Translations under genes and position numbers: made by a program
Assembly (NCBI GenBank): GCA_951406725.2
Contig: OX597842.1
Coordinates: forward strand, 19,902,001-19,966,000
DNA: 64,000 bases
From: Octopus vulgaris
Lineage: Eukaryota
Direction: 5' to 3'
The notes under the pieces: generated by a model
The model's database searches: none
What the model was told of the DNA's origin: nothing
Seen by the model: the letters and a program-made list of their open reading frames with translations, nothing else
Part shown: positions 13,505 through 45,397 of the stretch, piece by piece
Numbering within the stretch: the first letter of the stretch is position 1
Layout of the letters: every line of letters starts with the position of its first letter

Positions 13505-13545
13505 AAAATAATCACTCGGTTTCGTGAAAATAAAAAATAAAAATT

Positions 13546-14301
13546 ATGCAGACTGCTATGATTTCACGCGACCCTATAACACCGTTTTGCGGCGACACCG
13601 ACGTGGTCGCTTGGTTGAGGAGGGTGAAGTTGGTGGCGAAGCTACACGGCATAGCTGACCTGGCTAGTTTTATGCCGTTGTATTTGGATGGCCCGGCGTT
13701 GGCGTTATATCTGGAGATGGAGGAAGCGGACCAACGCAGCGCGGACAAGGTGGAGATCCGACTTATGGAGGCCTTCGCGGAAGGAATGTTCGAAGCGTAC
13801 ACTCGACTGGGTAGGATGAGGTGGACAGGACAGCAGGTGGACGTGTTCGCCGGCGAGCTTAGAAGGTTGGCAAAACTTGCGGGATATGAGGGAGAGTCGC
13901 TAGAACGCACGGTCAGGTTAGCGTTCGTGACCGGCTTTCCCGACATCATGTCGGTCGAGCTACAGAAGCTCCCGAACGTGCGGTCGATGCCGATGGCCGA
14001 GATTATATCGCGGGCACGTGTACTGGTGTCGTGCAGCAGGTCGACGTCGGTAGCAGCGACTGCAACGTCGAAAAGTGGCCCAGCTAGGAGCAACGGAGAG
14101 GGGCTGGGGAAAGAACGTGTGCGGTCGTTTAAGGGACAGTGTTTCCGGTGCCAGGGCCCACACATGGTCCGTGACTGCGCGTCGCCCAAGCCCGAGGTGA
14201 TTTGCTACCGGTGCCGAGAGCCGGGGCATGTGGCCAGCGAGTGTCTGCGGGGAAACGGACCGCGGGAGACTACTGCGCCGGTAGTTGTCCCTTTGGATTA
14301 G
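13546..14301 (+). CDS. gag: Gag with two CCHC zinc knuckles
   Basis: 251-aa open ORF; CFRCQGPHMVRDC and CYRCREPGHVASEC. Confidence 0.92.
   Translation: MQTAMISRDPITPFCGDTDVVAWLRRVKLVAKLHGIADLASFMPLYLDGPALALYLEMEEADQRSADKVEIRLMEAFAEGMFEAYTRLGRMRWTGQQVDVFAGELRRLAKLAGYEGESLERTVRLAFVTGFPDIMSVELQKLPNVRSMPMAEIISRARVLVSCSRSTSVAATATSKSGPARSNGEGLGKERVRSFKGQCFRCQGPHMVRDCASPKPEVICYRCREPGHVASECLRGNGPRETTAPVVVPLD
14250..14291 (+). promoter_or_regulatory. -1 programmed ribosomal frameshift signal (gag to pro-pol)
   Basis: G GGA AAC slippery heptamer in gag phase, 7-nt spacer, hairpin GGGAGACTACTG-CGC-CGGTAGTTGTCCC; the protease ORF is in the -1 frame. Confidence 0.8.
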
Positions 14302-14789
14302 TAGCGGCGCGTTTCTCATCGTTACCTGTGGTCGACATTCTGGTGAAGGGGAAGATGTCGCGAGCCCTGGTGGACACGGGCTGTACGACGACCCTGATGA
14401 CCACAGAAGTGGCAGAGACGTGGAGTGGAGGAAGCAGTGTCAGGGCAGTCGACGGAAGAGAAGTGCACTGCGAAGGGGTTACGGATGCGCAGATCGTGGT
14501 GCAGGGACTGCAGCTGACGTTGCGAGCGATTGTGGTCGGTCACTTGGTGGACGAGATCGACGTGGTGATGGGGATGGATGCGATCACCCGTCTGGGAGGT
14601 GTTACCGTCAACGAGGCTGGCGTAACGTTTGGGCTAGCAGGGAAGCCGTGTAGGGCGACACCACGCACCGACGACGACCGTGAGGAAATGGATGCGGCGC
14701 ACACCATTGAAGACCAGGATTTTCGGGCTGTCTTTGATGGCGAGAGGTGGACAGTGGAGTGGCACTGGAAGGGAGAGCCCCGATGTTAA
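14256..14789 (+). CDS. Retroviral-type aspartic protease region (reached by frameshift)
   Basis: ALVDTGC catalytic motif and VVMGMD motif in ORF 14202-14789. Confidence 0.88.
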   Translation, partial: RTAGDYCAGSCPFGLVAARFSSLPVVDILVKGKMSRALVDTGCTTTLMTTEVAETWSGGSSVRAVDGREVHCEGVTDAQIVVQGLQLTLRAIVVGHLVDEIDVVMGMDAITRLGGVTVNEAGVTFGLAGKPCRATPRTDDDREEMDAAHTIEDQDFRAVFDGERWTVEWHWKGEPRC

Positions 14790-17161
14790 AGAACAAAGTG
14801 GGCTGCTATCAGCATACTCTAAAAGGAGATGCCAGAAGTGAGTTCGAGGGGGAGGTGGAGCGGTGGATTAAGGAGGGCATACTGATCCCCTGGGAAAAAG
14901 AAGAGAGCGGAGTCCTGCCACTGATGGCGGTGATACAGCCCACAAAGCGTAAGGTCAGGCCAGTGCTCGACTTCCGAGAGCTGAATGACCACGTGTCGTG
15001 TCATACAGGCGGCGAGGCCACGGATGTCTGCGGAGACACCTTGCGAGAGTGGAGGCAGACGGCGGGGGCCTCCACGATTGTCGATTTGAAGTCGGCATAC
15101 CTTCAGGTTCATGTGGCTGAGAAACTATGGAGGTACCAGCTCGTCAGGTATAGGGGCCGGACGTACTGTCTGACCAGGTTGGGATTCGGGCTGAATTCAG
15201 ATCCGAAGATTATGGCAACAATTCTCAAGGCCGTCCTGGGGAAGGTGGACAGAGTAAAAAGGGCCACCAATTCATACATCGACGACATTCTGGTGGATGA
15301 AACCGTGATACCAGCAACGGAGGTCATAGGCCACCTGAAGAGTTTTGGACTGATCGCCAAGCCGCCAGAGGCTATGGAGGGAGGTGCTGCACTGGGCCTC
15401 AAGCTATGGAGAGACAAAGCCGGCGCCTTGGTGTTCCGGCGAGGGAATGAGATCCCTGAACTGGGCGCCAGCATGAGTAGACGGGAGCTGTTCTCTGTGT
15501 GTGGGAAGCTGGTGGGACACTACCCGATTGCAGGCTGGCTCCGGACAGCATGCAGCTTCATCAAGAGACGAGCCGAAGGAGTGAAGTGGAATGACAAAGT
15601 GGGGGAGAGGACGATCGACATGATGCAGGAAGTCCTGGTCAGAGTAAGAGCAGAGGACCCGGTGAGGGGCAGCTGGTACGTTCCCAAATCAAAGAGCGGG
15701 ATCGTATGGTGTGACGCCAGTAGCATCGCAATAGGGATTGTCTTGGAAGTGGGAGGTGTCACGGTGGAAGATGCAGCCTGGCTCAGGAAGATGGATGACT
15801 GCAGTCACATCAACGTGGCGGAGTTGGAAGCCGTGCTGAAGGGGGTGAACCTAGCCTTGAAGTGGGGGTTGCACACCATAGAAATCAGGACTGATTCAGC
15901 CACTGTACTTGGTTGGGCGATGGCAGTCATCACCGATGAGCGGAGGGTGCGGACCAAAGGGGCTGCAGAGATGCTGGTAAAGCGTCGATTGGGGATACTG
16001 CGTGAACTGACCACTGAGTTCAATCTGAAGCTGAGCGTGATCTTTGTGCCTTCCGAGAAGAACAGGGCAGACGTCCTGACCAGGGTTAAGCGAGCCTGGT
16101 TGCAAGTGCCAGAGGACGCGAAGCAGGATCTAGCTGCAGTATGCCGTCTGAGCGACTCGGAGTTACGGAGACTACACACCATGCATCACATGGGTGTGGA
16201 CAGGACGTTGTTCCTGGCCAGAAAAGTCGACTCCGACGTAACAAGACAGAGCGTGCGGAGAGTGGTTAGCAGTTGCGACAGGTGCCAGTCCATCGACCCT
16301 GCTCCGGTCATGCATGAAGCGGGAAGTATTCCAGTGGACCAGGAATGGAGACGACTGGCGGTGGACATAACACACTACCGGCAGGGGACATACCTCTCAA
16401 TGGTTGACTGCGGACCGGGGCGGTTCGCCATATGGAGGGAGATGAGGTCAGGAACCGCAGAAGAAATTGCGAAAGTGCTGAACGAGATATTCCTGGAACG
16501 AGGCCCCGTGGATGAACTGCTTCTGGACAACGGCACTGCATTTCGCTCGGAGGCGCTGAGAGAAATGCTTGATGAGTGGAAGGTCAACCGCTTCTTCAGG
16601 GCGGCATACCGGCCAAGTGGAAACGGGGTGGTGGAAAGGCATCATCGTACCATCAAGGCCATGGCTGAGAGGGGTCACATTTCACCAGTCGAGGCCGTGT
16701 TTTGGTACAACATGTCGCCCAGATCAGGACACGCCGAGGAGTCGGTGCCACACAGGGCAATATTCAGGTACGAGTGGAGACATCCGTGTACTACATCAAT
16801 GCGACCCGGGGCAGAGGAAGAGCACGCCTTCGTGCAGGTCGGGGAGGAAGTCTGGGTGAAACCCCCGAACGCACGGTGTACATCGCAATGGGGAAAGGGG
16901 ACAATAACCTCCGTAAATTCAAAGAACAACATCTCGGTAGATGGTATGCCACGCCACGTTTTGGACATACGGAGGATTGTCCATGCCCCGGAGGATGGGA
17001 CAAGCAACAGTGGGCAAGACGATAACAACAGACAGGATGACGAGGTCGGCAGCAACACGCCAGAAACAAGTCCTAGGGTCGCACTGCGACTACAGAGGGA
17101 GCGGCACCCTCCTCCCTGGTTGGCTGACTACGAAACCAGTTTCAGGTGCGGGAGCGAGTGA
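14780..17161 (+). CDS. pol: Pol: reverse transcriptase, RNase H, integrase
   Basis: RPVLDFRELN, VDLKSAYLQ, LGFGLN, YIDDI; WCDAS/AELEA/TDS/NRAD; H..HMG..CDRC, LDNGTAF, NGVVERHHRTIK; out of frame with the protease by 1 nt at ~14778-14781. Confidence 0.93.
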   Translation, partial: PMLKNKVGCYQHTLKGDARSEFEGEVERWIKEGILIPWEKEESGVLPLMAVIQPTKRKVRPVLDFRELNDHVSCHTGGEATDVCGDTLREWRQTAGASTIVDLKSAYLQVHVAEKLWRYQLVRYRGRTYCLTRLGFGLNSDPKIMATILKAVLGKVDRVKRATNSYIDDILVDETVIPATEVIGHLKSFGLIAKPPEAMEGGAALGLKLWRDKAGALVFRRGNEIPELGASMSRRELFSVCGKLVGHYPIAGWLRTACSFIKRRAEGVKWNDKVGERTIDMMQEVLVRVRAEDPVRGSWYVPKSKSGIVWCDASSIAIGIVLEVGGVTVEDAAWLRKMDDCSHINVAELEAVLKGVNLALKWGLHTIEIRTDSATVLGWAMAVITDERRVRTKGAAEMLVKRRLGILRELTTEFNLKLSVIFVPSEKNRADVLTRVKRAWLQVPEDAKQDLAAVCRLSDSELRRLHTMHHMGVDRTLFLARKVDSDVTRQSVRRVVSSCDRCQSIDPAPVMHEAGSIPVDQEWRRLAVDITHYRQGTYLSMVDCGPGRFAIWREMRSGTAEEIAKVLNEIFLERGPVDELLLDNGTAFRSEALREMLDEWKVNRFFRAAYRPSGNGVVERHHRTIKAMAERGHISPVEAVFWYNMSPRSGHAEESVPHRAIFRYEWRHPCTTSMRPGAEEEHAFVQVGEEVWVKPPNARCTSQWGKGTITSVNSKNNISVDGMPRHVLDIRRIVHAPEDGTSNSGQDDNNRQDDEVGSNTPETSPRVALRLQRERHPPPWLADYETSFRCGSE

Positions 17162-18003: not shown

Positions 18004-19707
18004 GGATCTTTTCCTTTTGAACGGCAGTTTGTAACATAATTTCTAGGTAACTAAAAAGTTTTAAACTTCCTGTACTGGTAGAATGTGTTTATAAAACATC
18101 TTTTTCTCTTGGCTTTATTGAGAAAATTCTATAGTTTGTAAGATATTTGGGATCTTTTCGGTTTGAACGGCAGTTTTTTAAAATAATTTCCACGTAACTA
18201 AACACTTTTAAACTTCGTATACTGGTAGAATGTGTTTATAAAACATCTTTTTCTCTTGGCTTTATTGAGAAAATTCTATACTTTGTAAGATATTTGGGAT
18301 CTTTTCCGTTTGACCGGCAGTTTTTAAAAAATTTCCACGTAATAAACACTTTTAAACTTCGTATACTGGTAGAATGTGTTTATAAAACATCTTTTCTCTT
18401 GGCTTTATTGAGAAAATTTATACTTTGTAAGATATTTGGGATCTTTTTGACCGCAAAAAATAATTTCCACGTAACTAAACACTTTTAAACTTCGTATACT
18501 GGTAGAATGTGTTTATAAAACATCTTTTTCTCTTGGCTTTATTGAGAAAATTCTATAGGTTGTAAGATATTTCGTCTTTAATTTCTTGCATTTCGGCAAT
18601 TTTAACCAATCACTGGCGTCCATTTAGGTAAATAACATTCTGTACATTATGAATATGTCCCTTCTTTATGAAACAGATTGGGTTTATTTACATTTGTGAA
18701 GAAAAAAGATACCCTTCCCCCCACCCCTAACCCTAAATCTAAAATAGATTGAAATGCTAAGTTTTTTATAGCAGTGTCGTATGAAGTTGTCACCCATAAT
18801 TATAACCCTAGTATCGATCTATTGCATTTCAATCTATTTTAGATTTAGAGTTAGGGTTAGGGTTTGGGGTGGAGGAAGGGTATCTTTTTTCTTCACAAAT
18901 GTAAATAAACCCAATCTGTTTCTTAAACGAGGGACATATTCATTATGCACAGAATGTTGTTTACGTCAATGGAGGTAATTGATTGGTTAAAATTGCCGAA
19001 ATGCAGGAAATTTTAGACGAAATATGTTACAATATTTATTACGAAATATGTTACAATGTTTCTTACCTCAATAGACGTCCATTGATTGGTTGAAATTGCG
19101 GAAATTGAAGAAAGAAAAACAACAAATGTCTTACAAACTATAGAATTTTCTCAATAAAGCCAAGAGAAAAAGATGTTTTATAAACACATTCTACCAGTAT
19201 ACGAAGTTTAAAAGTTTTTAGTTACGTGGAAATTATTTTAAAAAACTGCCGGTCAAACGGAAAAGATCCCAAATATCTTACAAACTATAGAATTTTCTCA
19301 ATAAAGCCAAGGGAAAAGATGTTTTATAAACACATTCTACCAGTATACGAAGTTTAAAAGTGTTTAGTTAGTTGGAAATTATTTTAAAAAACTGCCGGTC
19401 AAACAGAAAAGACCCAAATATCTTACAAATCATAGAATTTTCTCAATAAAGCCAAGAGAAAAAGATGTTTTATAAACACATTCTACCAGTATACGAAGTT
19501 TAAAAGTGTTTAGTTACGTGGAAATTATTTTAAAAACTGCCGGTCAAACGGAAAAGATCCCAAATATCTTACAAATCATAGAATTTTCTCAATAAAGCCA
19601 AGAGAAAAAGATGTTTTATAAACACATTCTACCAGTATACGAAGTTTAAAAGTGTTTAGTTACGTGGAAATTATTTTAAAAAGCTGCCGGTCAAACGGAA
19701 AAGATCC
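18004..19707. mobile_element. GGATCTTTTC fold-back element with tandemly amplified ~147-bp termini
   Basis: Four forward terminal units (~18004, 18150, 18297, 18439) and four inverted units (ending ~19269, 19414, 19560, 19707) around an inverted core with CCCTAA/TTAGGG motifs. Confidence 0.8.
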
Positions 19708-20049
19708 CCCCATTTTCCTAAAAGTTGATGGAAAAACTCGGATCTTGTGAATTTTCCCAAGTCCTCTCCCCACCCTCCCGTTGCGTAGCACGCATTTTGT
19801 TCCCTATTCGTTGCCTACACATTGTTTTACATCCATTTGAATATTTTTTTCTTTTTCTTTTTTTTTTTTTTTTGATTTTCTGTTCCGGGTCAACCTATAA
19901 ACATTAACCAACTCCTTTTTAAAAGTTTGATTGTCGAATGTTTTGTCATAAATAGGCAATCTTTTGTAATTACATTCCCAGTTACAAAATTATGCTCCAC
20001 CCACCAAATTTATCTGTTCTAATTTCTGAAAAACAAAACGAAAATAAAA

Positions 20050-23780: not shown

Positions 23781-23796
23781 GGCCCTGAAAAGGACG
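23781..23796 (-). terminator. Histone 3' stem-loop of H2B (degenerate)
   Basis: Minus strand CGTCCTTTTCAGGGCC followed by ACCCA; first base pair broken relative to GGCCCTTTTCAGGGCC. Confidence 0.8.
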
Positions 23797-23828
23797 GTTA
23801 TTCTTCGATGAAGAGAAACGAAGCAGGT

Positions 23829-24206
23829 TTATTTGCTGCTAGTGTATTTGGTGACGGCCTTGGTACCCTCAGAGACGGCGTGTTTGGCCAACTCACCAGG
23901 AAGGAGAAGACGGACAGCAGTCTGCACCTCACGGCTACTGATGGTCGAACGTTTGTTGTAGTGAGCCAAGCGGCTGGATTCAGAAGCTATTCTTTCGAAC
24001 AGATCGTTGACAAAACTGTTCATGATGGACATAGCTTTGCTGGAGATGCCAGTGTCCGGGTGGACTTGCTTCATCACTTTGTAGATGTAGATGGAGTAAC
24101 TTTCCTTCCTCTTCTTCTTACGTTTCTTGTCCCCGTCAGGGCGAGAGGTCTTGGCCTTGGAGGCCTTCTTGGCTCCTTTCGAAGCAGTTGCTGGTGCTGG
24201 TGGCAT
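23829..24206 (-). CDS. H2B: Histone H2B (125 aa, intact ORF, native promoter apparently lost)
   Basis: [14 protein letters not shown]...[26 protein letters not shown]...[21 protein letters not shown]; intronless with stem-loop. Confidence 0.96.
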
Positions 24207-24226
24207 AATGTCACTTGCGAAAGCTA

Positions 24227-25181
24227 TTTCTTTATTATCCATAAGGATTAACACAGATGGGGACAATACAATGGTTTGGGGTCAAAACATGGAACTTTTT
24301 ACAATGAAACCGGATGAGTTATGTACAGTGGTGTTATAATGAAATCGAAAAACAAACAACAAGAAAGGACAATGAAGATAAAAGAACAGGGTAGCCGACC
24401 CCACGAGCCCTGTTATTTCAGCAGAGACTTTTGGTAAGTGATCATGCAGGGCCTTTCACACCCAGCATTCGTGCTACATGCGTCCATCTTTTTTTGAATA
24501 CAGACTTAGTCAGACACCTTTTCTCCAGCTCCACTTTTTACTTCAGATGGAATTTGAAGAAGTTTGTTAGGTCGGTGCCAGAGATCATGGTGTCTGACAT
24601 TAAACCTTTCACTCTTGTCTTCCATATAACCTCTTTCGCAACTGCTACTGTCACGAGAAAGCAATGCTTACCTTCGTTCGTCATGAAACCAGGTGGGTCA
24701 ATTTTAAGGATTGACTCAGACGACAGCTGTACTCTTCCCTCGTCCGACAACAGGTGTTCGGCATAAACCCACACTTCCGAAATCTCCGGACATTGAACGA
24801 TGGCGTGCAGGACTGTTTCCACGTCCTGTCCGGCATTGCCCGAGTTGCGGAAGCGTACGAGAGCCTTTCGGCACTCCGAATACCACATATTTGATTTCAG
24901 TCTGCGACGAAACCAGGTTTCTCTACCACCAAAACTGGCAAAGCTGGGGAATGTTTGTCTTGCGAGCGGAGACCACACCCGTTCACCTTCCAGGTAGAGC
25001 CAAAGATGCCTGAGCCTCAGCGCATGTCTGCGCATCAACAGCCAAGGCATCCCTAACCCACCCTTTAACGGTTGTTGACAACAGATAGAACGTCTCACAA
25101 GAGGTTTGGAGCCTTTCCACAAAAAGCGGAAGATTTGCCTCTCCAACTTGTTTACCCACGAATCCGGACAGGGGACGACGT
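24227..25181 (-). mobile_element. 5'-truncated Tx1/L1-clade non-LTR retrotransposon
   Basis: IFRFLWKG...PLKGGLGMP and ETVLHAIVQCP..VW motifs of L1/Tx1 ORF2; internal deletion before the HxxxxC motif; premature stop at 24538; 3' UTR ends AATAAAGAAA at 24236-24227. Confidence 0.85.
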
Positions 25182-25454
25182 AAGGGAAATTATGCCCAAC
25201 GTGTCGGTGCCGGAGCCCCAGTCTACTTGGCCGCTGTAATGGAATATTTGGCTGCTGAGGTGTTGGAATTGGCAGGAAATGCTGCCAGAGATAACAAGAA
25301 ATCGAGAATCATTCCCCGTCACTTGCAGTTGGCCATCCGTAACGACGAAGAATTGAACAAACTTTTGTCCGGAGTGACCATCGCCCAGGGTGGTGTTCTT
25401 CCCAACATTCAGGCTGTTCTTCTGCCCAAGAAAACCCAGAAGGCTTCTAAGTAA
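25179..25454 (+). pseudogene. H2A: Histone H2A, N-terminal ~34 codons missing
   Basis: [63 protein letters not shown]...; upstream sequence is retrotransposon. Confidence 0.93.
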
Positions 25455-25492
25455 ATTAATTCGGTGGCATTTTTTACTTTATCCGTATCAAC

Positions 25493-25508
25493 GGCCCTTT
25501 TCAGGGCC
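25493..25508 (+). terminator. Histone 3' stem-loop of H2A
   Basis: GGCCCTTTTCAGGGCC, 38 nt after the stop codon. Confidence 0.92.
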
Positions 25509-27525: not shown

Positions 27526-28592
27526 ATATATGTGGAGGCGCAATGGCTTAGTGGACTCGCAGGATCGCGGTTTCGATTCCCAGACCGGGCGTTGTGAGTG
27601 TTTATTGAGCAAAAACACCTAAAAGCTCCACGAGGCTCTTGCAGGGGTGGGGGGTGATCCCTGCTGTACTCTTTCTCCCACTCTTCTGTCGGCCTGCTCG
27701 CTTAGCCAGCGGGGTGGCGTCCTTCGAAGGCTAAAACAATGCGAACACATTGTGACCAGCGATATGTAACTACATCTGATGGTTTGGTCGGTCACGTGAT
27801 CACATATACACATATATATCTATATATATAGAGAGAGAGTTTACGAAAATAACCAAAAGACGAAGACAGGTGGTGTACAAAACAAACAGTTGTATTAGTA
27901 TAATGCTTAGGAATAGAAAAAGTCTTTTACGTTTCGAGCCTACGCTCTTCTACAGAAAAAACAAGGAGGGAAAAAGATGTGTGTAGTGGCTAACGATCTA
28001 TCATGGGGACGGCCATATATATATACATACATACATACTTTTATTAAAGCTGCAAATTTATCACAAAACTGTTAATCTGAGTGTCAGGTTTGCATTCAAG
28101 AGACAGGTGTGATGGAAACATTTCATTCCAACTGTCCAACAGACAAGAACATGAAACTCTGAGAAACAGTTTTGTAATAATTGGACAAACATTAATAGAA
28201 TTTTTTATTCATTCAGAAATTATCTTAAATGGAATATATATATGAATATTATGAAAGAACAGCTTTTATTAAAAATATCAGAATTGATGAGGATATATAA
28301 AAATATAGTGTTAGTAAGTTGTTATAACATGCTGTTATATCTTCTTTATCATCTGGATATATTTATTGTTATATAAGATATTCCTTTCAACAAATGACTT
28401 TTGATATTGATACAGTCACTCTTCTCTATGATGATAAAGATATCTGTAGTTAATTGTCTTTTTTCAGAGAAGGATATACCACAGAATCAGTTACATGGTT
28501 TCTCTTCCATATCAATGTGTGTCTGTGTTTATCTAAGAGATTTATTTGAGAGAACCATTCACCACAAATATCACAATGACATGGTTTCTCTC

Positions 28593-29279
28593 CTAATGAA
28601 TGAGTCTGTGAGTGGTCAAGTGATCTATTTCAGAGAATGATTCACCACAGGTGTCACAATGATGTGACTTCACCCCTGAATGAACACCTTTGTGTCTACT
28701 TAAATGTCCCTTTTGAGTGAATGATTTACTGCAGATATCACAGTGGTAAGGTTTCTCACCTGTATGGATAAATCTGTGAGTGGATAAGTCACCACTTTGA
28801 GAGAATGATTTATCACAGATATCACATTGATATGGCTTTTCACCTGTATGAGTACGTTTATGTACAATTACACCACTTTTGTGAGTGAATGATTTACCAC
28901 AGATATCACACTGAAATGGTTTCTCTCCTGTATGGATAACCTTGTGAGCAGCTAAGTTACCATCTCGAGAGAATGATTTACCACAGATATCACACTGAAA
29001 TGGTTTCTCTCCTGTATGAATACGTTTATGTACAGTTACAGCACTTCTTCGAGCAAATGTTTTACTGCAGATATCACACTGATATGGTTTCTCCCCTGTG
29101 TGAGTAAGTCTGTGTGTATCCAAGTTAAATTTCATGGAGAATGATTTACCACAGATATCACAGTGATATGGTTTCTCTCCTGTATGAGTAAGTTTGTGAG
29201 TAGCTATGTAACTCTTTAGAGAGAATGATTTACCACAGATATCACAGTCGTATACAGATTTTCCTCTTTCTTTTGGCAT
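28593..29279 (-). CDS. C2H2 zinc-finger protein, 8 fingers (228 aa)
   Basis: MPKERGKSVYD then 8 CxxC...HxxxH units with TGEKPY linkers; candidate splice acceptor TTTCAG at 29697-29692. Confidence 0.9.
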   Translation of the reverse strand: MPKERGKSVYDCDICGKSFSLKSYIATHKLTHTGEKPYHCDICGKSFSMKFNLDTHRLTHTGEKPYQCDICSKTFARRSAVTVHKRIHTGEKPFQCDICGKSFSRDGNLAAHKVIHTGEKPFQCDICGKSFTHKSGVIVHKRTHTGEKPYQCDICDKSFSQSGDLSTHRFIHTGEKPYHCDICSKSFTQKGHLSRHKGVHSGVKSHHCDTCGESFSEIDHLTTHRLIH

Positions 29280-31354
29280 CTCTGCAGCTAAAACTAACAA
29301 AACTCCAAGATTCTCACACAATTCCTCTTTCTGTAATTTTTTTCTTCAACAAAATGGTCTGGAAATTTCATTTCTTCTTGTTTCTATATTTTATTCCTAA
29401 CAAATGTTACAACTGCCATATTTTTATCAAATATAAGCTTTGCTGATATCTTAAGATGTTGCAAATGTCTTTGTAAATTTATCCAAGTTTATTCAGAATC
29501 CAAATTTAGGTTTTACCCATTTCAGAGTGAATCCAAGAAATTTCACCAATAATGTCACTCAGAAGAAATATTTTACTGAAATTCACAGTTAATTTACATA
29601 AACAGGGTTCTTATATCCAGTTCTGTGTAACATCGTCTTCAAAATATGATAAATATTGATGACGCTTCTGCAGTAAATTTCCTCTGATATTCTGAAATAA
29701 GAGAGAAACAACAGTTTAACACAGAGTGTAGCTTTGGTTATGACAAAGGCTTGGTGTTCATTTATATACGACATTTACTGCTACAATGATAAATCTCATT
29801 TAAGAAACAGATTGGGTTTATTTACATTTCTGAAGAGAAAAAGGGATCTTTTCGGTTTGACCGGCAGTTTTTTCTAGTGGTGTCATATGAAATTGTCACC
29901 CATAATTATGACCCTAGTATCAATCTATTGCATTTCAATCTGTTTTAGGGTTAGGAGTGGGGGGAAGGGTAATTTTCTTTTTTTTTCCACAAATGTAAAT
30001 AAACCCAATCTATTTCTTAAACGAGGGACATATTCATACTGCCTTTAGGCAGTACAAAAACAACAAAAAAGTGGAAGGTGCAGTTATGACAAAAGAAAAG
30101 CAGGACAAAAACGATGCATGCAAATGGGTTGGCTGGAGGTAAATCTAGATGGAAAAGCATGATAAATTTATGAGAACCCGCTGGGACATTAATATATATA
30201 TAATTATAATAAAGGGTTATTTGCAACAAGTTGCTTAAACCACATACCGAAAATATTAGAAATAGCAGCCAAATAGGCTACTATTACTATTACTACAAAA
30301 ATAAGTCTCCACAAACAACAGTATTTGCAACCCAAACAACAGTATTTGCAACCCGTATATGGTAAAAGGAATGAAGACAACGAAATCACACAGTCTACTT
30401 TATATATATATATATACACATGAGCAAAATACCCCTCCTCCCGGCCGTCCAATGGAATGTGCTGAGTTGTCAAACATTTAAACCAAATTTTCTCAAGATA
30501 ACTTGTCCGACCGCTCCATAGGCCTCCCCTTTGAGAAACACTGATTTAACCTAAATTAGGGACACCAGCAAAAGAAGAAATAAAGATAGACTTTTTTTCT
30601 ATTCCAAAGAAAAACGATTTTATTCACAAAAATATGCAACCGAAGAGTTTAAAGTACCAGTAATTATAAGGCTGTTGACTGGGAGAACACAAACATGGTT
30701 TAAACAGTAAGCTTGGCAGGAAAGAAACGTGCCTTTAAGCAGGACAAAAACAACAAAAAATGGAAGGTGCAGTTATGTACAGGTTGACGGAAGAAAACCA
30801 GGACAAAAACGGCTTTATTGATCGCATTCTCACCTGGAATATATTATTGTAATTTTTTCTCACCTGGAAACGATTTTTGTAATTTTTTCAAAGACTAATA
30901 CACGCCCTGATACAGTCGGTATCTACAAATCAAATTTAAGTGCAATCGGATGGAGGATGCCTGAAATCCAAGAAGACACACAGACAGAACGGATTTTATA
31001 TAAGAGATTATGAAAAACAGCTTTTATTAAAAATATCAGAATGGTAGATATTGATGAGTATAAATAAAAAATATAGTGTTTTGTTATAACATGCTGTTAT
31101 ATCTCCTTTATCAGCTGGATATATTTATTGTTATATAAGATATTCCTTTCAACAAATGACTTTTGATATTGATACAGTCACTCTTCTCTATGATGAGAAA
31201 TATATCTGTAGTTAATTGTCTTTTTTCAGAGAAGGATATACCACAGAATCAGTTAGATGGTTTCTCTTCTATATCAATGTGTGTCTGTGTTTATCTAAGA
31301 GATTTATTTGAGAGAACCATTCACCACAGATATCACAATGACATGGTTTCTCTC

Positions 31355-33157
31355 CTAATGAATGAGTCTGTGAGTGGTCCAGTGATCTATTTCAGAGAAT
31401 GATTCACCACAGATATCACAGTGATAAGGCTTTTCACCTGTATGAGTAGGTTTGTGATTAGTTAATTTAGCTTTTACAGAGAATGATTCACCACAGGTGT
31501 CACAATGATGTGATTTCATTCCTGAATGAACACCTTTGTGTCTACTTAAATGTCCCTTTTGAATGAATGATTTACTGCAGATATCACAGTGATATGGCTT
31601 TTCACCTGTATGAGTACGTTTGTGATTAGTTAATTTAGCTTTTACAGAGAATGATTCACCACAGGTGTCACAATGATGTGATTTCATTCCTGAATGAACA
31701 CCTTTGTGTCTACTTAAATGTCCCTTTTGAATGAATGATTTACTGCAGATATCACAGTGATATGGCTTTTCACCTGTATGAGTACGTTTGTGATTAGTTA
31801 ATTTAGCTTTTACAGAGAATGATTCACCACAGGTGTCACAATGATGTGACTTCACCCCTGAATGAATACCTTTGTGTCTACTTAATTGTCCCTTTTGAAT
31901 GAATGATTTACTGCAGATATCACAGTGATATGGTTTCTCACCTGTATGAGTACGTTTGTGTTTAGTTAAGACAACCTTTAGAGTGAATGATTTCCCACAG
32001 ATATCACAGTGGTAAGGTTTCTCACCTGTATGGATAAACCTGTGAGTGGATAAGTCACCACTTTGAGAGAATGATTTATCACAGATATCACATTGATATG
32101 GTTTCTCACCTGTATGAGTACGTTTGTGTACAGTTACAGCACTTCTGTGAGTGAATGATTTACCACAGATATCACAGGAATATGGCTTTTCTCCTGTATG
32201 AGTAAATTTGTGAGTAGCTAAGTCACTATTTCGAGAGAAGGATTTACCACAGATATCACACTGGTAAGGTTTCTCCCCTGTATGAGTAAGTCTGTGCTTA
32301 CTTAAATTACATTGCAAGGAGAATGATTTACCACAGATATCACACTGATGGGGTTTCTCGCCAGTGTGAGTATGTTTGTGTTTAGCTAAGTCACCATTTC
32401 GAGAGAATGATTTACCACAGATATCACACTGGTAAGGTTTGTCGCCTGTATGAGTAAGTTTGTGCGTAACTAAGTAACCGCATCGAGAGAATGATTTACT
32501 ACAGATATCACAGTGATATGGTTTTTCTCCTGTATGAATACGTTTATGTATAGTTACAGTACTTCTTTGAGTGAATGATTTACCACAGATATCACACTGA
32601 TAAGGTTTCTCCCCTGTATGAATAACTTTGTGTGTCACTAAGTTAACTCTCACAGAGAATGATTTACCACAGATATCACACTGATAAGGTTTCTCACCTG
32701 TATGAATAAGTTTGTGTGTAGTTAAGTTACCTTTCAAAGAAAATAATTTACCACAGATATCACACTGATAAGGTTTCTTGCCTGTATGAGTATGTCTGTG
32801 TTTAGCTAAGGCACCATTTCGAGAGAATGATTTACCGCAGATATCACACTGATATGGTTTCTCCCCAGTGTGAGTAAGTTTGTGTGTATCCAAGTTAAAT
32901 TTCATGGAGAATGATTTACCACAGATATCACAGTGATATGGTTTCTCTCCTGTATGAATACGTCTGTGACATGTTAAACCACTACAATTAGAAAATGATT
33001 TACCACAAATATCACAATGATATGGTTTATCGCCTGTATGAATACGTTTATGTACAGTTACAGCACTTCTTCGAGCGAATGATTTATCACAAATATCACA
33101 CTGATAAGGTTTCTCACCTGTATGAGTAAGTTTGTGTTTAGCTAAGTTAACTCTCAT
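31355..33157 (-). CDS. C2H2 zinc-finger ORF, 21 intact fingers (600 aa)
   Basis: 21 x 28-aa units; paralog of 28593-29279 with matching UTRs; open only from an internal Met. Confidence 0.8.
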
Positions 33158-33634
33158 GGAGAATGATTTACCACAGATATCACAATGATATGGTTTCTCT
33201 CCTGTGTGAGTAAGTGTCTAGTCAAAAGACCACTTTGAGAGAATGATTTACCACAGATATCACACTGATATGGTTTCTCACCTGTATGAATATGTTTATG
33301 TACAGTTACAGCACTTCTGCGAATTAATGATTTACTGCAGATATCACAATGATATGGTTTCTCTCGTGTATGAGTAAGTTTGTGTTTAGTTATGTGACAG
33401 TTTTGAGAGAATGATTTACCACAGATATCATACTGATATAGTTTTTGCTCTGTGTGAATATTTCTGTTAATAGTTAGATTAAGTTTATTTTTAATATGAT
33501 TTACCACAGATATCACAATGATGTGGCTTCTCTCCTGTATGAGTAAATTTGTGAGTAGCTAAGTTAACTTTCACAGAGAATGATTTACCACAGATATCAC
33601 AGTCATATACAGATTTTCCTCTTTCTTTTGGCAT
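33154..33634 (-). pseudogene. Disrupted 5' part of the long zinc-finger gene
   Basis: Same MPKERGKSVYD start, stop at 33491 in finger 2, further frameshift near 33205-33215. Confidence 0.8.
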
Positions 33635-35574: not shown

Positions 35575-36391
35575 TCAATGTTATTGATTGGTTGAAATTG
35601 CCAAAAATTAACAAATTAAACGACAAATATCTTACAAATTATAGAATTTTCTCAATAAAGCCAAGAGAAAAAGATGTTTTATAAACACATTCTACCAGTA
35701 TACGAAGTTTAAAAGTGTTTAGTTACGTGGAAATTATTTTAAAAAACTGCCGGTCAAACCGAAAAGATCCCAAATATCTTACAAACTATAGAATTTTCTC
35801 AATAAAGCCAAGAGAAAAAGATGTTTTATAAACACATTCTACCAGTATACGAAGTTTAAAAGTGTTTAGTTACGTGGAAATTATTTTAAAAAACTGCCGG
35901 TCAAACGGAAAAGATCCAGACATGTATTCCCTTACGGCTGATGTAGTTTAACTCTCTTTTTTTTCAAGGCTTGAGCACCAATTGAAGAATTCAAATTTGA
36001 TGGCAAAGAATCCAAATTAAATTGAAAACGTCTGTGGCTGTGTGGTAAGTAGCTTGTTTACCAACAACATGGTTCCGGGTTCAGTCTCTTGGTTTTATTG
36101 AGAAAATTCTAGAGTTTGTAAGATATTTGTTGTTTTTTTCTTCAATTTCTGCAATTTCAACCAATCAATGACGTCTATTGAGGTGAAACCATTCTGTGCC
36201 GTATGAATATGTCCCTCGTTTAAGAAACAGATTGGGTTTATTTACATTTCTAAAGAAAAAAAGATGCCCTTTCCCCCAACCCTAACCCTAAATTAGATTG
36301 AAATGCAATAGATCGATACTAGGGTCTATATTATGGGTGACAATTTCATATGACACCGTTAGAAAAAACTGCCGTTCAAACCGAAAGATCC
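35575..36391. mobile_element. Further GGATCTTTTC-family pieces (two tandem termini ending 35770 and 35917; one copy ending 36391); also 29845 and 38193
   Basis: Same terminal units as 18004-19707. Confidence 0.75.
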
Positions 36392-43358: not shown

Positions 43359-45397
43359 TAGGAGCGGCTGTGTGGTAAGTAGCTTGTTTACCAAACACAT
43401 GGTTCCAGGTTCAGTCCCACTGCATGGCACCTTGGGCAAGTGTCTTATACTATAGCCTCGGGCCAACCAAAGCCTTGTGAGTGGATTTGGTAGACGGAAA
43501 CTGAAAGAAGCCCATCGTATGTATATATATATATATAGGTGTAGGAGCGGCTGTGTGGTAAGTAGCTTGGTTACCAACCACATGGTTCCGGGTTCAGTCC
43601 CACTGCGTGGCACCTTGGACAAATATCTTCTACTATAGCCTCGGGCCGACCAAATCCTTGTGAGTGGATTTGGTAGACGGAAACTGAAAGAAGCCCATCG
43701 TATGTATATATATATATAGGTGTAGGAGCGGCTGTGTGGTAAGTAGCTTGGTTACCAACCACATGGTTCCGGGTTCAGTCCCACTGCATGGCACCTTGGG
43801 CAAGTGTCTTCTACTATAGCCTCGGGACGACCAAAGCCTTGTGAGTTGATTTGGTAGACGGAAACTGAAAGAAGCCCATCGTATGTATATATATATATAG
43901 GTGTAGGAGCGGCTGTGTGGTAAGTAGCTTGGTTACCAACCACATGGTTCCGGGTTCAGTCCCACTGCATGGCACCTTGGGCAAGTGTCTTCTACTATAG
44001 CCTCGGGACGACCAAAGCCTTGTGAGTGGATTTGGTAGACGGAAACTGAAAGAAGCCCATCGTATGTATATATATATATAGGTGTAGGAGCGGCTGTGTG
44101 GTAAGTAGCTTGGTTACCAACCACATGGTTCCGGGTTCAGTCCCACTGCATGGCACCTTGGGCAAGTGTCTTCTACTATAGCCTCGGGACGACCAAAGCC
44201 TTGTGAGTGGATTTGGTAGACGGAAACTGAAAGAAGCCCATCGTATGTATATATATATATATAGGTGTTGGAGCGGCTGTGTGGTAAGTAGCTTGTTTAC
44301 CAACCACATGGTTCCGGGTTCAGTCCCACTGCATGGCACCTTGGGCAAGTGTCTTCTAGTATAGCCTCGGGACGACCAAAGCCTTGTGAGTGGATTTGGT
44401 AGACGGAAACTGAAAGAAGCCCATCATATGTATATATATATATAGGTGTAGGAGCGGCTGTGTGGTAAGTAGCTTGGTTACCAACCACATGGTTCCGGGT
44501 TCAGTCCCACTGCGTGGCACCTTGGGCAAGTGTCTTCTGCTATAGCCTCGGGACGACCAAAGCCTTGTGAGTGGATTTGGTAGACGGAAACTGAAAGAAG
44601 CCCATCGTATGTATATATATATATATATAGGTGTAGGAGCGGCTGTGTGGTAAGTAGCTTGTTTACCAACCACATGGTTCCGGGTTCAGTCCCACTGCAT
44701 GGCACCTTGGGCAAGTGTCTTCTAGTATAGCCTCGGGACGACCAAAGCCTTGTGAGTGGATTTGGTAGACGGAAACTGAAAGAAGCCCATCGTATGTATA
44801 TATATATATATATAGGTGTAGGAGTGGCTGTGTGGTAAGTAGCTTGGTTACCAACCACATGGTTCCGGGTTCAGTCCCACTGCATGGCTCCTTGGGCAAG
44901 TGTCTTCTACTATAGCCTCGGGACGACCAAAGCCTTGTGAGTGGATTTGGTAGACGGAAACTGAAAGAAGCCCATCGTATGTATATATATATATATAGGT
45001 GTAGGAGAGGCTGTGTGGTAAGTAGCTTGGTTACCAACCACATGGTTCCGGGTTCAGTCCCACTGCATGGCACCTTGGGCAAGTGTCTTATACTATAGCC
45101 TCGGGACGACCAAAGCCTTGTGTGTGCATTTGGTAGACGGAAACTGAAAGAAGCCTGTTGTATATATGTATATATATATATATGTATGTGTGTGTTTGTG
45201 TTTATCCCCCTAGCATTGCTTGACAACCGATGCTGGTGTGTTTATGTCCCCGTGACTTAGCGGTTCGGTAAAAGAGACCGATAGAATAAGTACTGGGCTT
45301 ACAAAGAATAAGTCCCAGGGTCGAGTTGCTCGATTAAAGGCAGTGCTCCAGCATGGCCGCAGTCAAATGACTGAAACAAGTAAAAAGAGAAAAGAGA
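43359..45397 (+). repeat. Tandem array of ten ~181-185 bp SINE 5' halves ending in one complete family A SINE
   Basis: Unit starts near 43361, 43544, 43725, 43906, 44087, 44270, 44451, 44636, 44821, 45004, separated by (TA)n. Confidence 0.92.

Follow-up and report, generated by a model that had tools for sequence, protein, structure and literature searches.

Human L1 elements end in a poly(A) tail and insert at a TT/AAAA target motif, R2 elements encode a restriction-like endonuclease and occupy one fixed site in the rDNA, and LINEs of the Tx1 clade encode an ORF1 protein with RNA-binding domains and a CCHC knuckle. Among Tx1-clade LINEs, the main text of PMC4494074 lists several target-preferring families, i.e. 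Tx1L (Tx1D), Keno (U2 snRNA genes), Kibi and Koshi (microsatellites) as well as Tx1-Mar, Tx1-8_Crp and Tx1-4_AMi (LTR retrotransposons). The targets given there comprise transposons, U2, U5 and 5S genes, satellites and microsatellites; a family counts as target-specific when one sequence type makes up more than 20% of its flanks, and the choice of site is credited to the endonuclease (PMC4494074). For R2 and SINEU, cotranscription from the promoter of the target is described (PMC4494074). In the case of the Ty3 element of S. cerevisiae the position of insertion is set by host transcription factors (PMC6673722). Short ERV- or Gypsy-like pieces are present in histone amplicons of fish (PMC10651099, PMC6136364). 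The word "histone" does not occur in the main text of PMC4494074, and the portions considered of PMC13282606, PMC10294476, PMC13525598, PMC10651099 and PMC6136364 contain no histone-targeting LINE; target tables in the supplements of PMC4494074 or PMC13282606 may hold information relevant to novelty. A full-text literature search, with Repbase, subscription journals and supplements outside its reach, retrieved no histone-preferring LINE. A report of histone-targeting Tx1 elements in octopus, which an earlier sequence-only reading of the locus described below had mentioned, was not found in the full text of the open literature and may exist in Repbase or in subscription journals.

The histone unit of the window

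The window analyzed here is a stretch of 64,000 nucleotides of the Octopus vulgaris genome (C29:19902001-19966000; genome size 2.8 Gb). It contains a divergent H2B/H2A gene pair, between which a LINE remnant is located. The unit consists of the following features (positions within the window):

23781..23796, minus strand: H2B 3' stem-loop; in each of the three inserted copies, a G-to-C change of the first stem base disrupts the bottom pair (L031, L032 and L040 compared to uninserted C29 units)
23829..24206, minus strand: H2B coding sequence, open, 125 aa, promoter now gone
24207..24226, minus strand: H2B 5' UTR remnant; in the corresponding empty allele (C29:20367803), its first base lies 29 nt downstream of where the TATA box begins
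24227..25180, minus strand: L1/Tx1-like LINE remnant of 954 bp; end of ORF2 and 3' UTR, without poly(A) tail
24830..24832, no strand: junction of a secondary, internal 246-bp deletion, with 3-bp microhomology
25179..25180, no strand: junction of the secondary 882-bp deletion, with CG microhomology
25181..25454, plus strand: 5'-truncated H2A pseudogene, codon 35 to stop
25493..25508, plus strand: H2A 3' stem-loop, intact

The sequence-only reading holds on these coordinates with regard to the divergent gene order, the position of the LINE 3' end 20 nt upstream of the H2B ATG and in H2B sense, the loss of the intergenic promoter and of the start of H2A (the first 102-104 nt, with the junction at codon 35), and the lack of a target site duplication (TSD) in the window. 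Its proposed CGT microhomology at the junction is reduced to CG, i.e. 2 bp, by alignment. Judged by the TATA spacing, the element-H2B junction would coincide with the predicted transcription start. The remnant is 91-95% identical to an intact copy of the family (L103, see below), has a premature ORF2 stop at 24538-24540, and its own ORF2 remnant gives no match to Pfam. The H2B coding sequence shows one residue change (A to D, nt 71), which is otherwise seen only in a duplicate at C29:20.12 Mb. At 24207-24242, an ATG located within the 3' end of the element and in frame with H2B would add 12 residues (137-aa frame) if a read-through RNA were made. In sequencing run X1, which may be the assembly's own sample, one contig crosses the element-H2B junction with zero differences, and contigs of run X7 contain the empty H2B allele. 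The contigs of X1, X3, X7 and X11 are fragments only, and among those listed for X3, X7 and X11 none bridges the junction, which is uninformative either way.

Promoter loss as a later deletion

According to the sequence-only reading, the insertion itself had deleted the promoter. Three C29 copies have the H2B junction in common. One of these, at C29:20057756-20059485, contains 1,730 bp of the element, behind which the promoter is complete and H2A has its full length of 125 aa. It shows the same 3' junction as the window, with a flank identity of 98-99%. Compared to this sister copy, the window lacks 882 bp at the CG microhomology and a further 246 bp inside the element. Both deletions are also carried by the copy at C29:20.12 Mb, which does not differ from the window in 604 bases of the element or in the H2B coding sequence. 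Because the sister copy with the same 3' junction keeps both the promoter and an intact H2A, the promoter was not removed by the inserting element, and the 882-bp loss is secondary. By coordinate arithmetic, the 882 bp divide into 519 bp of element, 259 bp of promoter and UTRs and 104 nt of H2A.

A perfect TSD was not found in the parent copy (C29:20057756-20059485). Its 5' flank corresponds to the common H2B allele up to TATA+35, while its 3' flank corresponds to a rarer allele from TATA+29. These mismatched flanks would fit a short target duplication altered by conversion. For the locus as a whole we infer insertion at the H2B start, the stem-loop change, duplication, the deletions and renewed duplication, in this order. 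A chimeric retrocopy, in which a histone mRNA is copied before a jump to the LINE RNA, is ruled out, since the flanks beyond both stem-loops are those of genomic histone units and the parent keeps its promoter. The locus in the window is itself only a derived pseudogene unit, which illustrates one route of histone gene death in clusters, from insertion at the start via decay to deletion.

The element family

A near-complete, intact copy (L103, C4:97.26 Mb), whose TSD is LTR-derived, encodes an ORF1 of 476 aa and an ORF2 of 1130 aa (stop to stop). ORF2 contains an APE endonuclease (PF03372), a reverse transcriptase (PF00078) and a zf-RVT domain (PF13966). ORF1 matches the CCHC profile PF00098 with an E-value of 0.005, which is below the cut-off of that profile, and its Atlas neighbours belong to CCHC and ZCCHC3-RBD clusters (0.90-0.93). 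The best match of ORF2 among solved structures is human L1 ORF2p (PDB 8sxt and others, E 1e-66); a further match carries the transferred label "Transposon TX1 uncharacterized 149 kDa protein" (34% identity over 423 aa), and the closest named invertebrate protein relative is from Argonauta (60%). With these ORFs and the marks of target-primed insertion, the element is a non-LTR retrotransposon of the L1 group, APE type. We tentatively refer to it as L1/Tx1-like.

The copies of the family share one common 3' end, show no poly(A) at any 3' junction and are mostly 5'-truncated. An exact TSD of at least 9 nt is present at 22 of the 57 sites examined; two of these, located in simple repeats, were dropped, and the 20 retained TSDs measure 9-18 bp. 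Directly before the TSD (position -1) a C is found in 14 of these 20 sites (p 1e-4 vs 0.275), which is the sole motif and a weak one. Across the TSDs of the copies no shared target sequence that the endonuclease could read is seen, and a tethering domain could be recognized neither in ORF1 nor in ORF2. The family thus resembles human L1 in its best ORF2 structure match, its 9-18-bp TSDs and its frequent 5' truncation, but differs in that it lacks a poly(A) tail and a TT/AAAA motif and shows an approximately 1,000-fold regional bias. With the targeted Tx1 LINEs, as the main text of PMC4494074 presents them, it shares an ORF1 with one putative CCHC knuckle, an ORF2 with APE, RT and zf-RVT, short TSDs and a leaning to multicopy genes and LTR elements. 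Unlike these, it has neither a shared target sequence nor a single site, and goes to protein-coding histone genes and spacers (PMC4494074).

Sister families, whose endonuclease is 70-79% identical to that of the family, likewise have no poly(A) and show no histone bias. Six full-length sister LINEs of two families form a head-to-tail array with a spacing of ~5.3 kb at C10:76.648-76.680 Mb (L199-L203); their ORF2 is ~71% and ~79% identical to that of L103, and pairs occur on C3 and C12 (also L204-L207). The array suggests repeated insertion at one site. Another sister family (70% ORF2 identity, L213-L215) occupies the same position inside an abundant SINE in all three copies examined, with TSDs of 12-16 bp.

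Genomic distribution and orientation

Copies were counted genome-wide by a 24-nt pattern of the 3' end, which diverged copies escape. The pattern gives 64 matches, compared to 0 for the reversed control; after 12 copies were dropped as duplicates of shared junctions, 52 events remain. The sequence-only reading had proposed a family specific for the H2B 5' UTR that deletes the promoter upon insertion. H2B does directly follow four of the 64 copies, corresponding to two events, and H2B or H3 flanks five copies (three events, one of them at H3). The flank differs from H2B in 50 of 52 events, and apart from an LTR the remaining flanks are unrelated, as are the TSDs of the other copies. Moreover, the two H2B junctions are at different distances upstream of the ATG (20 vs 10 nt), and promoter and H2A are still present in the parent copy. 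We therefore consider an H2B-specific family refuted. Neither H2B nor any other single histone gene makes up more than 20% of the flanks, the share by which target specificity is defined in the main text of PMC4494074. A histone gene of whatever type lies no more than ~1 kb from the 3' end in 16 of 64 copies (25%) but in nine of 52 events (17%), a hand count that straddles this 20% value.

The same reading held that diverse non-histone 3' flanks would mark a chance insertion. The flanks are indeed diverse, yet the distribution is not that of chance. The reference set of 125 histone-fold matches is a lower bound, with pseudogenes included and H4 and H1 absent. Within 2 kb of these genes, i.e. 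in 0.014% of the genome, 19 of 64 copies and 11 of 52 events are located (expected 0.007 events, p 2e-32), which corresponds to an excess of ~1,500-fold. Among the 11 events is one in an LTR that is itself inserted into another copy at H2B; leaving it out gives 10 of 52. Of the 12 events within 20 kb, 11 fall within 2 kb, although this zone has an area share of only 19% (p 1e-7). Three variants of the family's 3' end each have a match at a histone start region. The other 40 events, all at distances above 20 kb from the listed histone genes, have no special features, and the CpG content of their flanks shows no pattern. Zinc-finger repeats occur in the fetched stretch at four of the 40 dispersed events, but a preference for zinc-finger clusters instead of histone genes was rejected, as events concentrate within 2 kb of histone genes. 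The family hence shows a strong regional preference for histone genes, which is neither H2B-specific nor due to chance.

The sister families behave differently. None of 145 matches to their endonuclease lies within 10 kb of a histone gene (nearest 114.7 kb), a control made up of long copies that selection against long insertions could lower, given that the histone-proximal copies of the family are mostly short. Likewise, none of 11 family-B 3' ends is found near histone genes, a number too small to be conclusive alone (Fisher p 0.19). As a separate observation, six of the 64 census copies cluster in 0.7 Mb at C28:5.24-5.90 Mb (L093-L095, L021, L235, L236); four of them are 250-650 kb away from the listed histone genes, and of these four, three have zinc-finger repeats nearby.

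In histone-proximal DNA (332 kb), 15 of 17 events are oriented in the sense of the nearest gene. Inclusion of one antisense copy missed by that scan gives 15 of 18 (p 0.004), and merging of two look-alike pairs by hand 13 of 16 (p about 0.01). SINEs, used as control, are in sense orientation in four of 13 cases (Fisher p 0.008 vs the family). Most histone-proximal events are located not at the start but 0.2-2 kb downstream of the histone stop codon, behind the stem-loop, and the sense orientation holds at both places.

Start sites and possible promoter capture

Six of the 52 events lie at or near TATA-driven starts (H2B, H3 and an LTR). The H3 insertion is found 32 nt before the ATG, which is roughly TATA+20 to +25 in paralogues, and the second H2B insertion 10 nt before the ATG; both junctions are near rather than at TATA+30, and their 5' sides are rearranged. 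In one LTR family, a Tx1-like LINE follows the TATA box at a distance of ~30 nt at four of 30 loci examined (three of the family, one of a sister family), three of the four positive loci having been known beforehand and the query taken from one of those. Two full-length family-B copies are located at TATA+30/31 of other promoters. Among the 20 TSD-defined sites, an exact TATA at -26 to -34 occurs in two, both in the LTR; start-site targeting as a rule for all copies is thus not supported, and most copies show no fixed distance from a promoter of the Ty3 kind. The family partly resembles Ty3, in its insertion at the starts of a multicopy gene class and in the C at the strand-transfer site (PMC6673722). 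Ty3 itself is an LTR element with an integrase and inserts at RNA polymerase III genes (PMC6673722). The family studied here is unrelated to it; as a non-LTR element it inserts at TATA promoters of polymerase II, with much lower precision, and downstream of genes as well.

If a full-length copy is transcribed from a host promoter, its daughters should begin with the first bases of the host. We compared six full-length 5' extensions with 63 histone 5'-UTR sequences, using 150 shuffles as control. The 5' end of a family member at C2:36.12 Mb matches 17 of 18 nt of an H3 5' UTR from TATA+30, and that of a more diverged relative at C6:91.46 Mb (71% over its 5' 514 nt) matches 21 of 23 nt of an H4 5' UTR from TATA+34, each beating 150 of 150 shuffles. 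The other four extensions score no better than shuffles. In 1.25 Mb of other fetched DNA, no non-self match of equal score to the two pieces was found. Neither copy is now located at a histone gene, and the pieces are likely a record of ancestors that were. They suggest transcription from captured histone promoters. Such expression borrowed from the flanking target, together with 5' extensions from earlier sites, would be similar to R2 and SINEU as described in the main text of PMC4494074. In contrast to R2 with its one fixed rDNA site, the borrowed promoters would vary, comprising those of H3, H4 and an LTR.

Possible basis of the histone preference

The reading we favor, with a probability of roughly 0.6, is a regional histone preference that arises because the insertion machinery is attracted by RNA polymerase II at highly transcribed genes with a TATA box, with the window as a later-deleted duplicate of one such insertion. 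Hereby, a low-copy L1/Tx1-like LINE would be recruited to the polymerase at strong TATA promoters, and the first nick would hit the template strand at sites of polymerase opening or pausing, i.e. in the zones of initiation and of read-through or termination. A full-length copy landing at a start could then be transcribed from the host promoter, and its daughters would inherit the initial ~18 nt of the host UTR, which the insertion had duplicated. At the locus studied here, H2B would have been severed from its promoter by the insertion, with decay and duplication of the unit to follow. A more specific version is put forward tentatively and may well prove wrong. According to this version, the LINE would travel with RNA polymerase II along histone genes and nick the template strand both at the start site and in the zone of read-through behind the stem-loop; it would possess no promoter of its own and cycle through captured histone and LTR promoters. 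Were this version true, expression would be tied to S phase, and stacked pieces of host 5' UTRs would form a record of past hosts.

The preference could also be passive, with a relaxed endonuclease that recognizes little more than the C before the TSD and cuts nucleosome-poor or early-replicating germ-line DNA in the absence of any polymerase tether, histone genes and LTR promoters merely being highly accessible. The C at -1 in 14 of 20 sites, the dispersed location of most events and the lack of a tethering domain among the features found are in line with this. Openness alone, however, does not predict a sense bias of 15 of 18, leaves the four insertions at one LTR position unexplained and does not account for why sister families are missing and SINEs less dense at these loci, so that we regard a passive preference as rather unlikely, if worth serious attention. 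Retention offers a different account, in which insertions are random but survive in histone clusters owing to the redundancy of these, and increase in number when clusters duplicate. Duplication is real, as the reduction from 64 copies to 52 events and the presence of the H2B insertion in three copies illustrate. Yet the ~1,500-fold excess at 2 kb is what persists after this collapse, and tails of SINEs and sister elements are rarer rather than commoner near histone genes, with 0.67 per 10 kb compared to 1.42 in far stretches, which had been selected for the insertions they contain and so do not sample the genome at random. In addition, individual TSDs or empty paralogous sites are present for several spacer copies, empty sites for four of the 10 tested. 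This account is therefore largely refuted and improbable.

Guidance by RNA or by a nuclear body would imply that a poly(A)-less RNA-protein particle gathers in histone locus bodies, or that it pairs with its targets through captured 5' UTR pieces. It would agree with the 3' junctions devoid of poly(A), with the histone UTR pieces at two 5' ends and with a strong histone bias that is absent in sisters with a 70-79% identical endonuclease; against it, by inspection, spacer targets and 5' ends have no sequence in common, and the sisters lack poly(A) too, which makes it quite improbable.

A preference for protein-coding histone genes by region and strand, without a target sequence, points to targeting via the host transcription machinery, as known for LTR elements such as Ty3. 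As L103 is intact and has close sisters with other targets (endonuclease 70-79% identical), domain swaps could directly test what sets LINE targeting.

Further observations at histone loci

In all histone clusters fetched, the genes are arranged as divergent H2A/H2B and H3/H4 pairs, and no H1 gene was found in them with H1 motifs. Two SINEs with a tail like that of the family's LINE are located at H2B promoters, one in antisense orientation at an H2B TATA box (C23:44.84 Mb, L058) and the other in place of the H2A side of an H2A/H2B promoter (C29:20.006 Mb, L039). In the window, C2H2 zinc-finger arrays of an 84-bp repeat at 28545-29345 and 31257-33608 (minus strand; 8 and 27 copies) adjoin the histone unit and were duplicated with it. 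A G+C-rich segment at 13534-17158 (plus strand) contains long open frames that by eye resemble gag and pol of an LTR retrotransposon, which makes it a candidate for such an element, and at 43359-45180 a SINE-like unit of 181 bp is repeated in tandem, with ten copies that are 96% alike. Tandem units of 146/147 bp occupy 18004-19708 and 35624-35917, and similar sequence begins an insert in the H2B promoter at C10:99.36 Mb. The latter locus (C10:99362746-99366510, L109) contains a nested set, in which a family copy before H2B harbors a solo LTR (TG...CA ends, 4-bp TSD) with a second family copy ~30 nt after the TATA box of that LTR. An unrelated insert of ~800 bp is located there at TATA+22 of the H2B promoter, and an inverted second H2A lies behind H2B.
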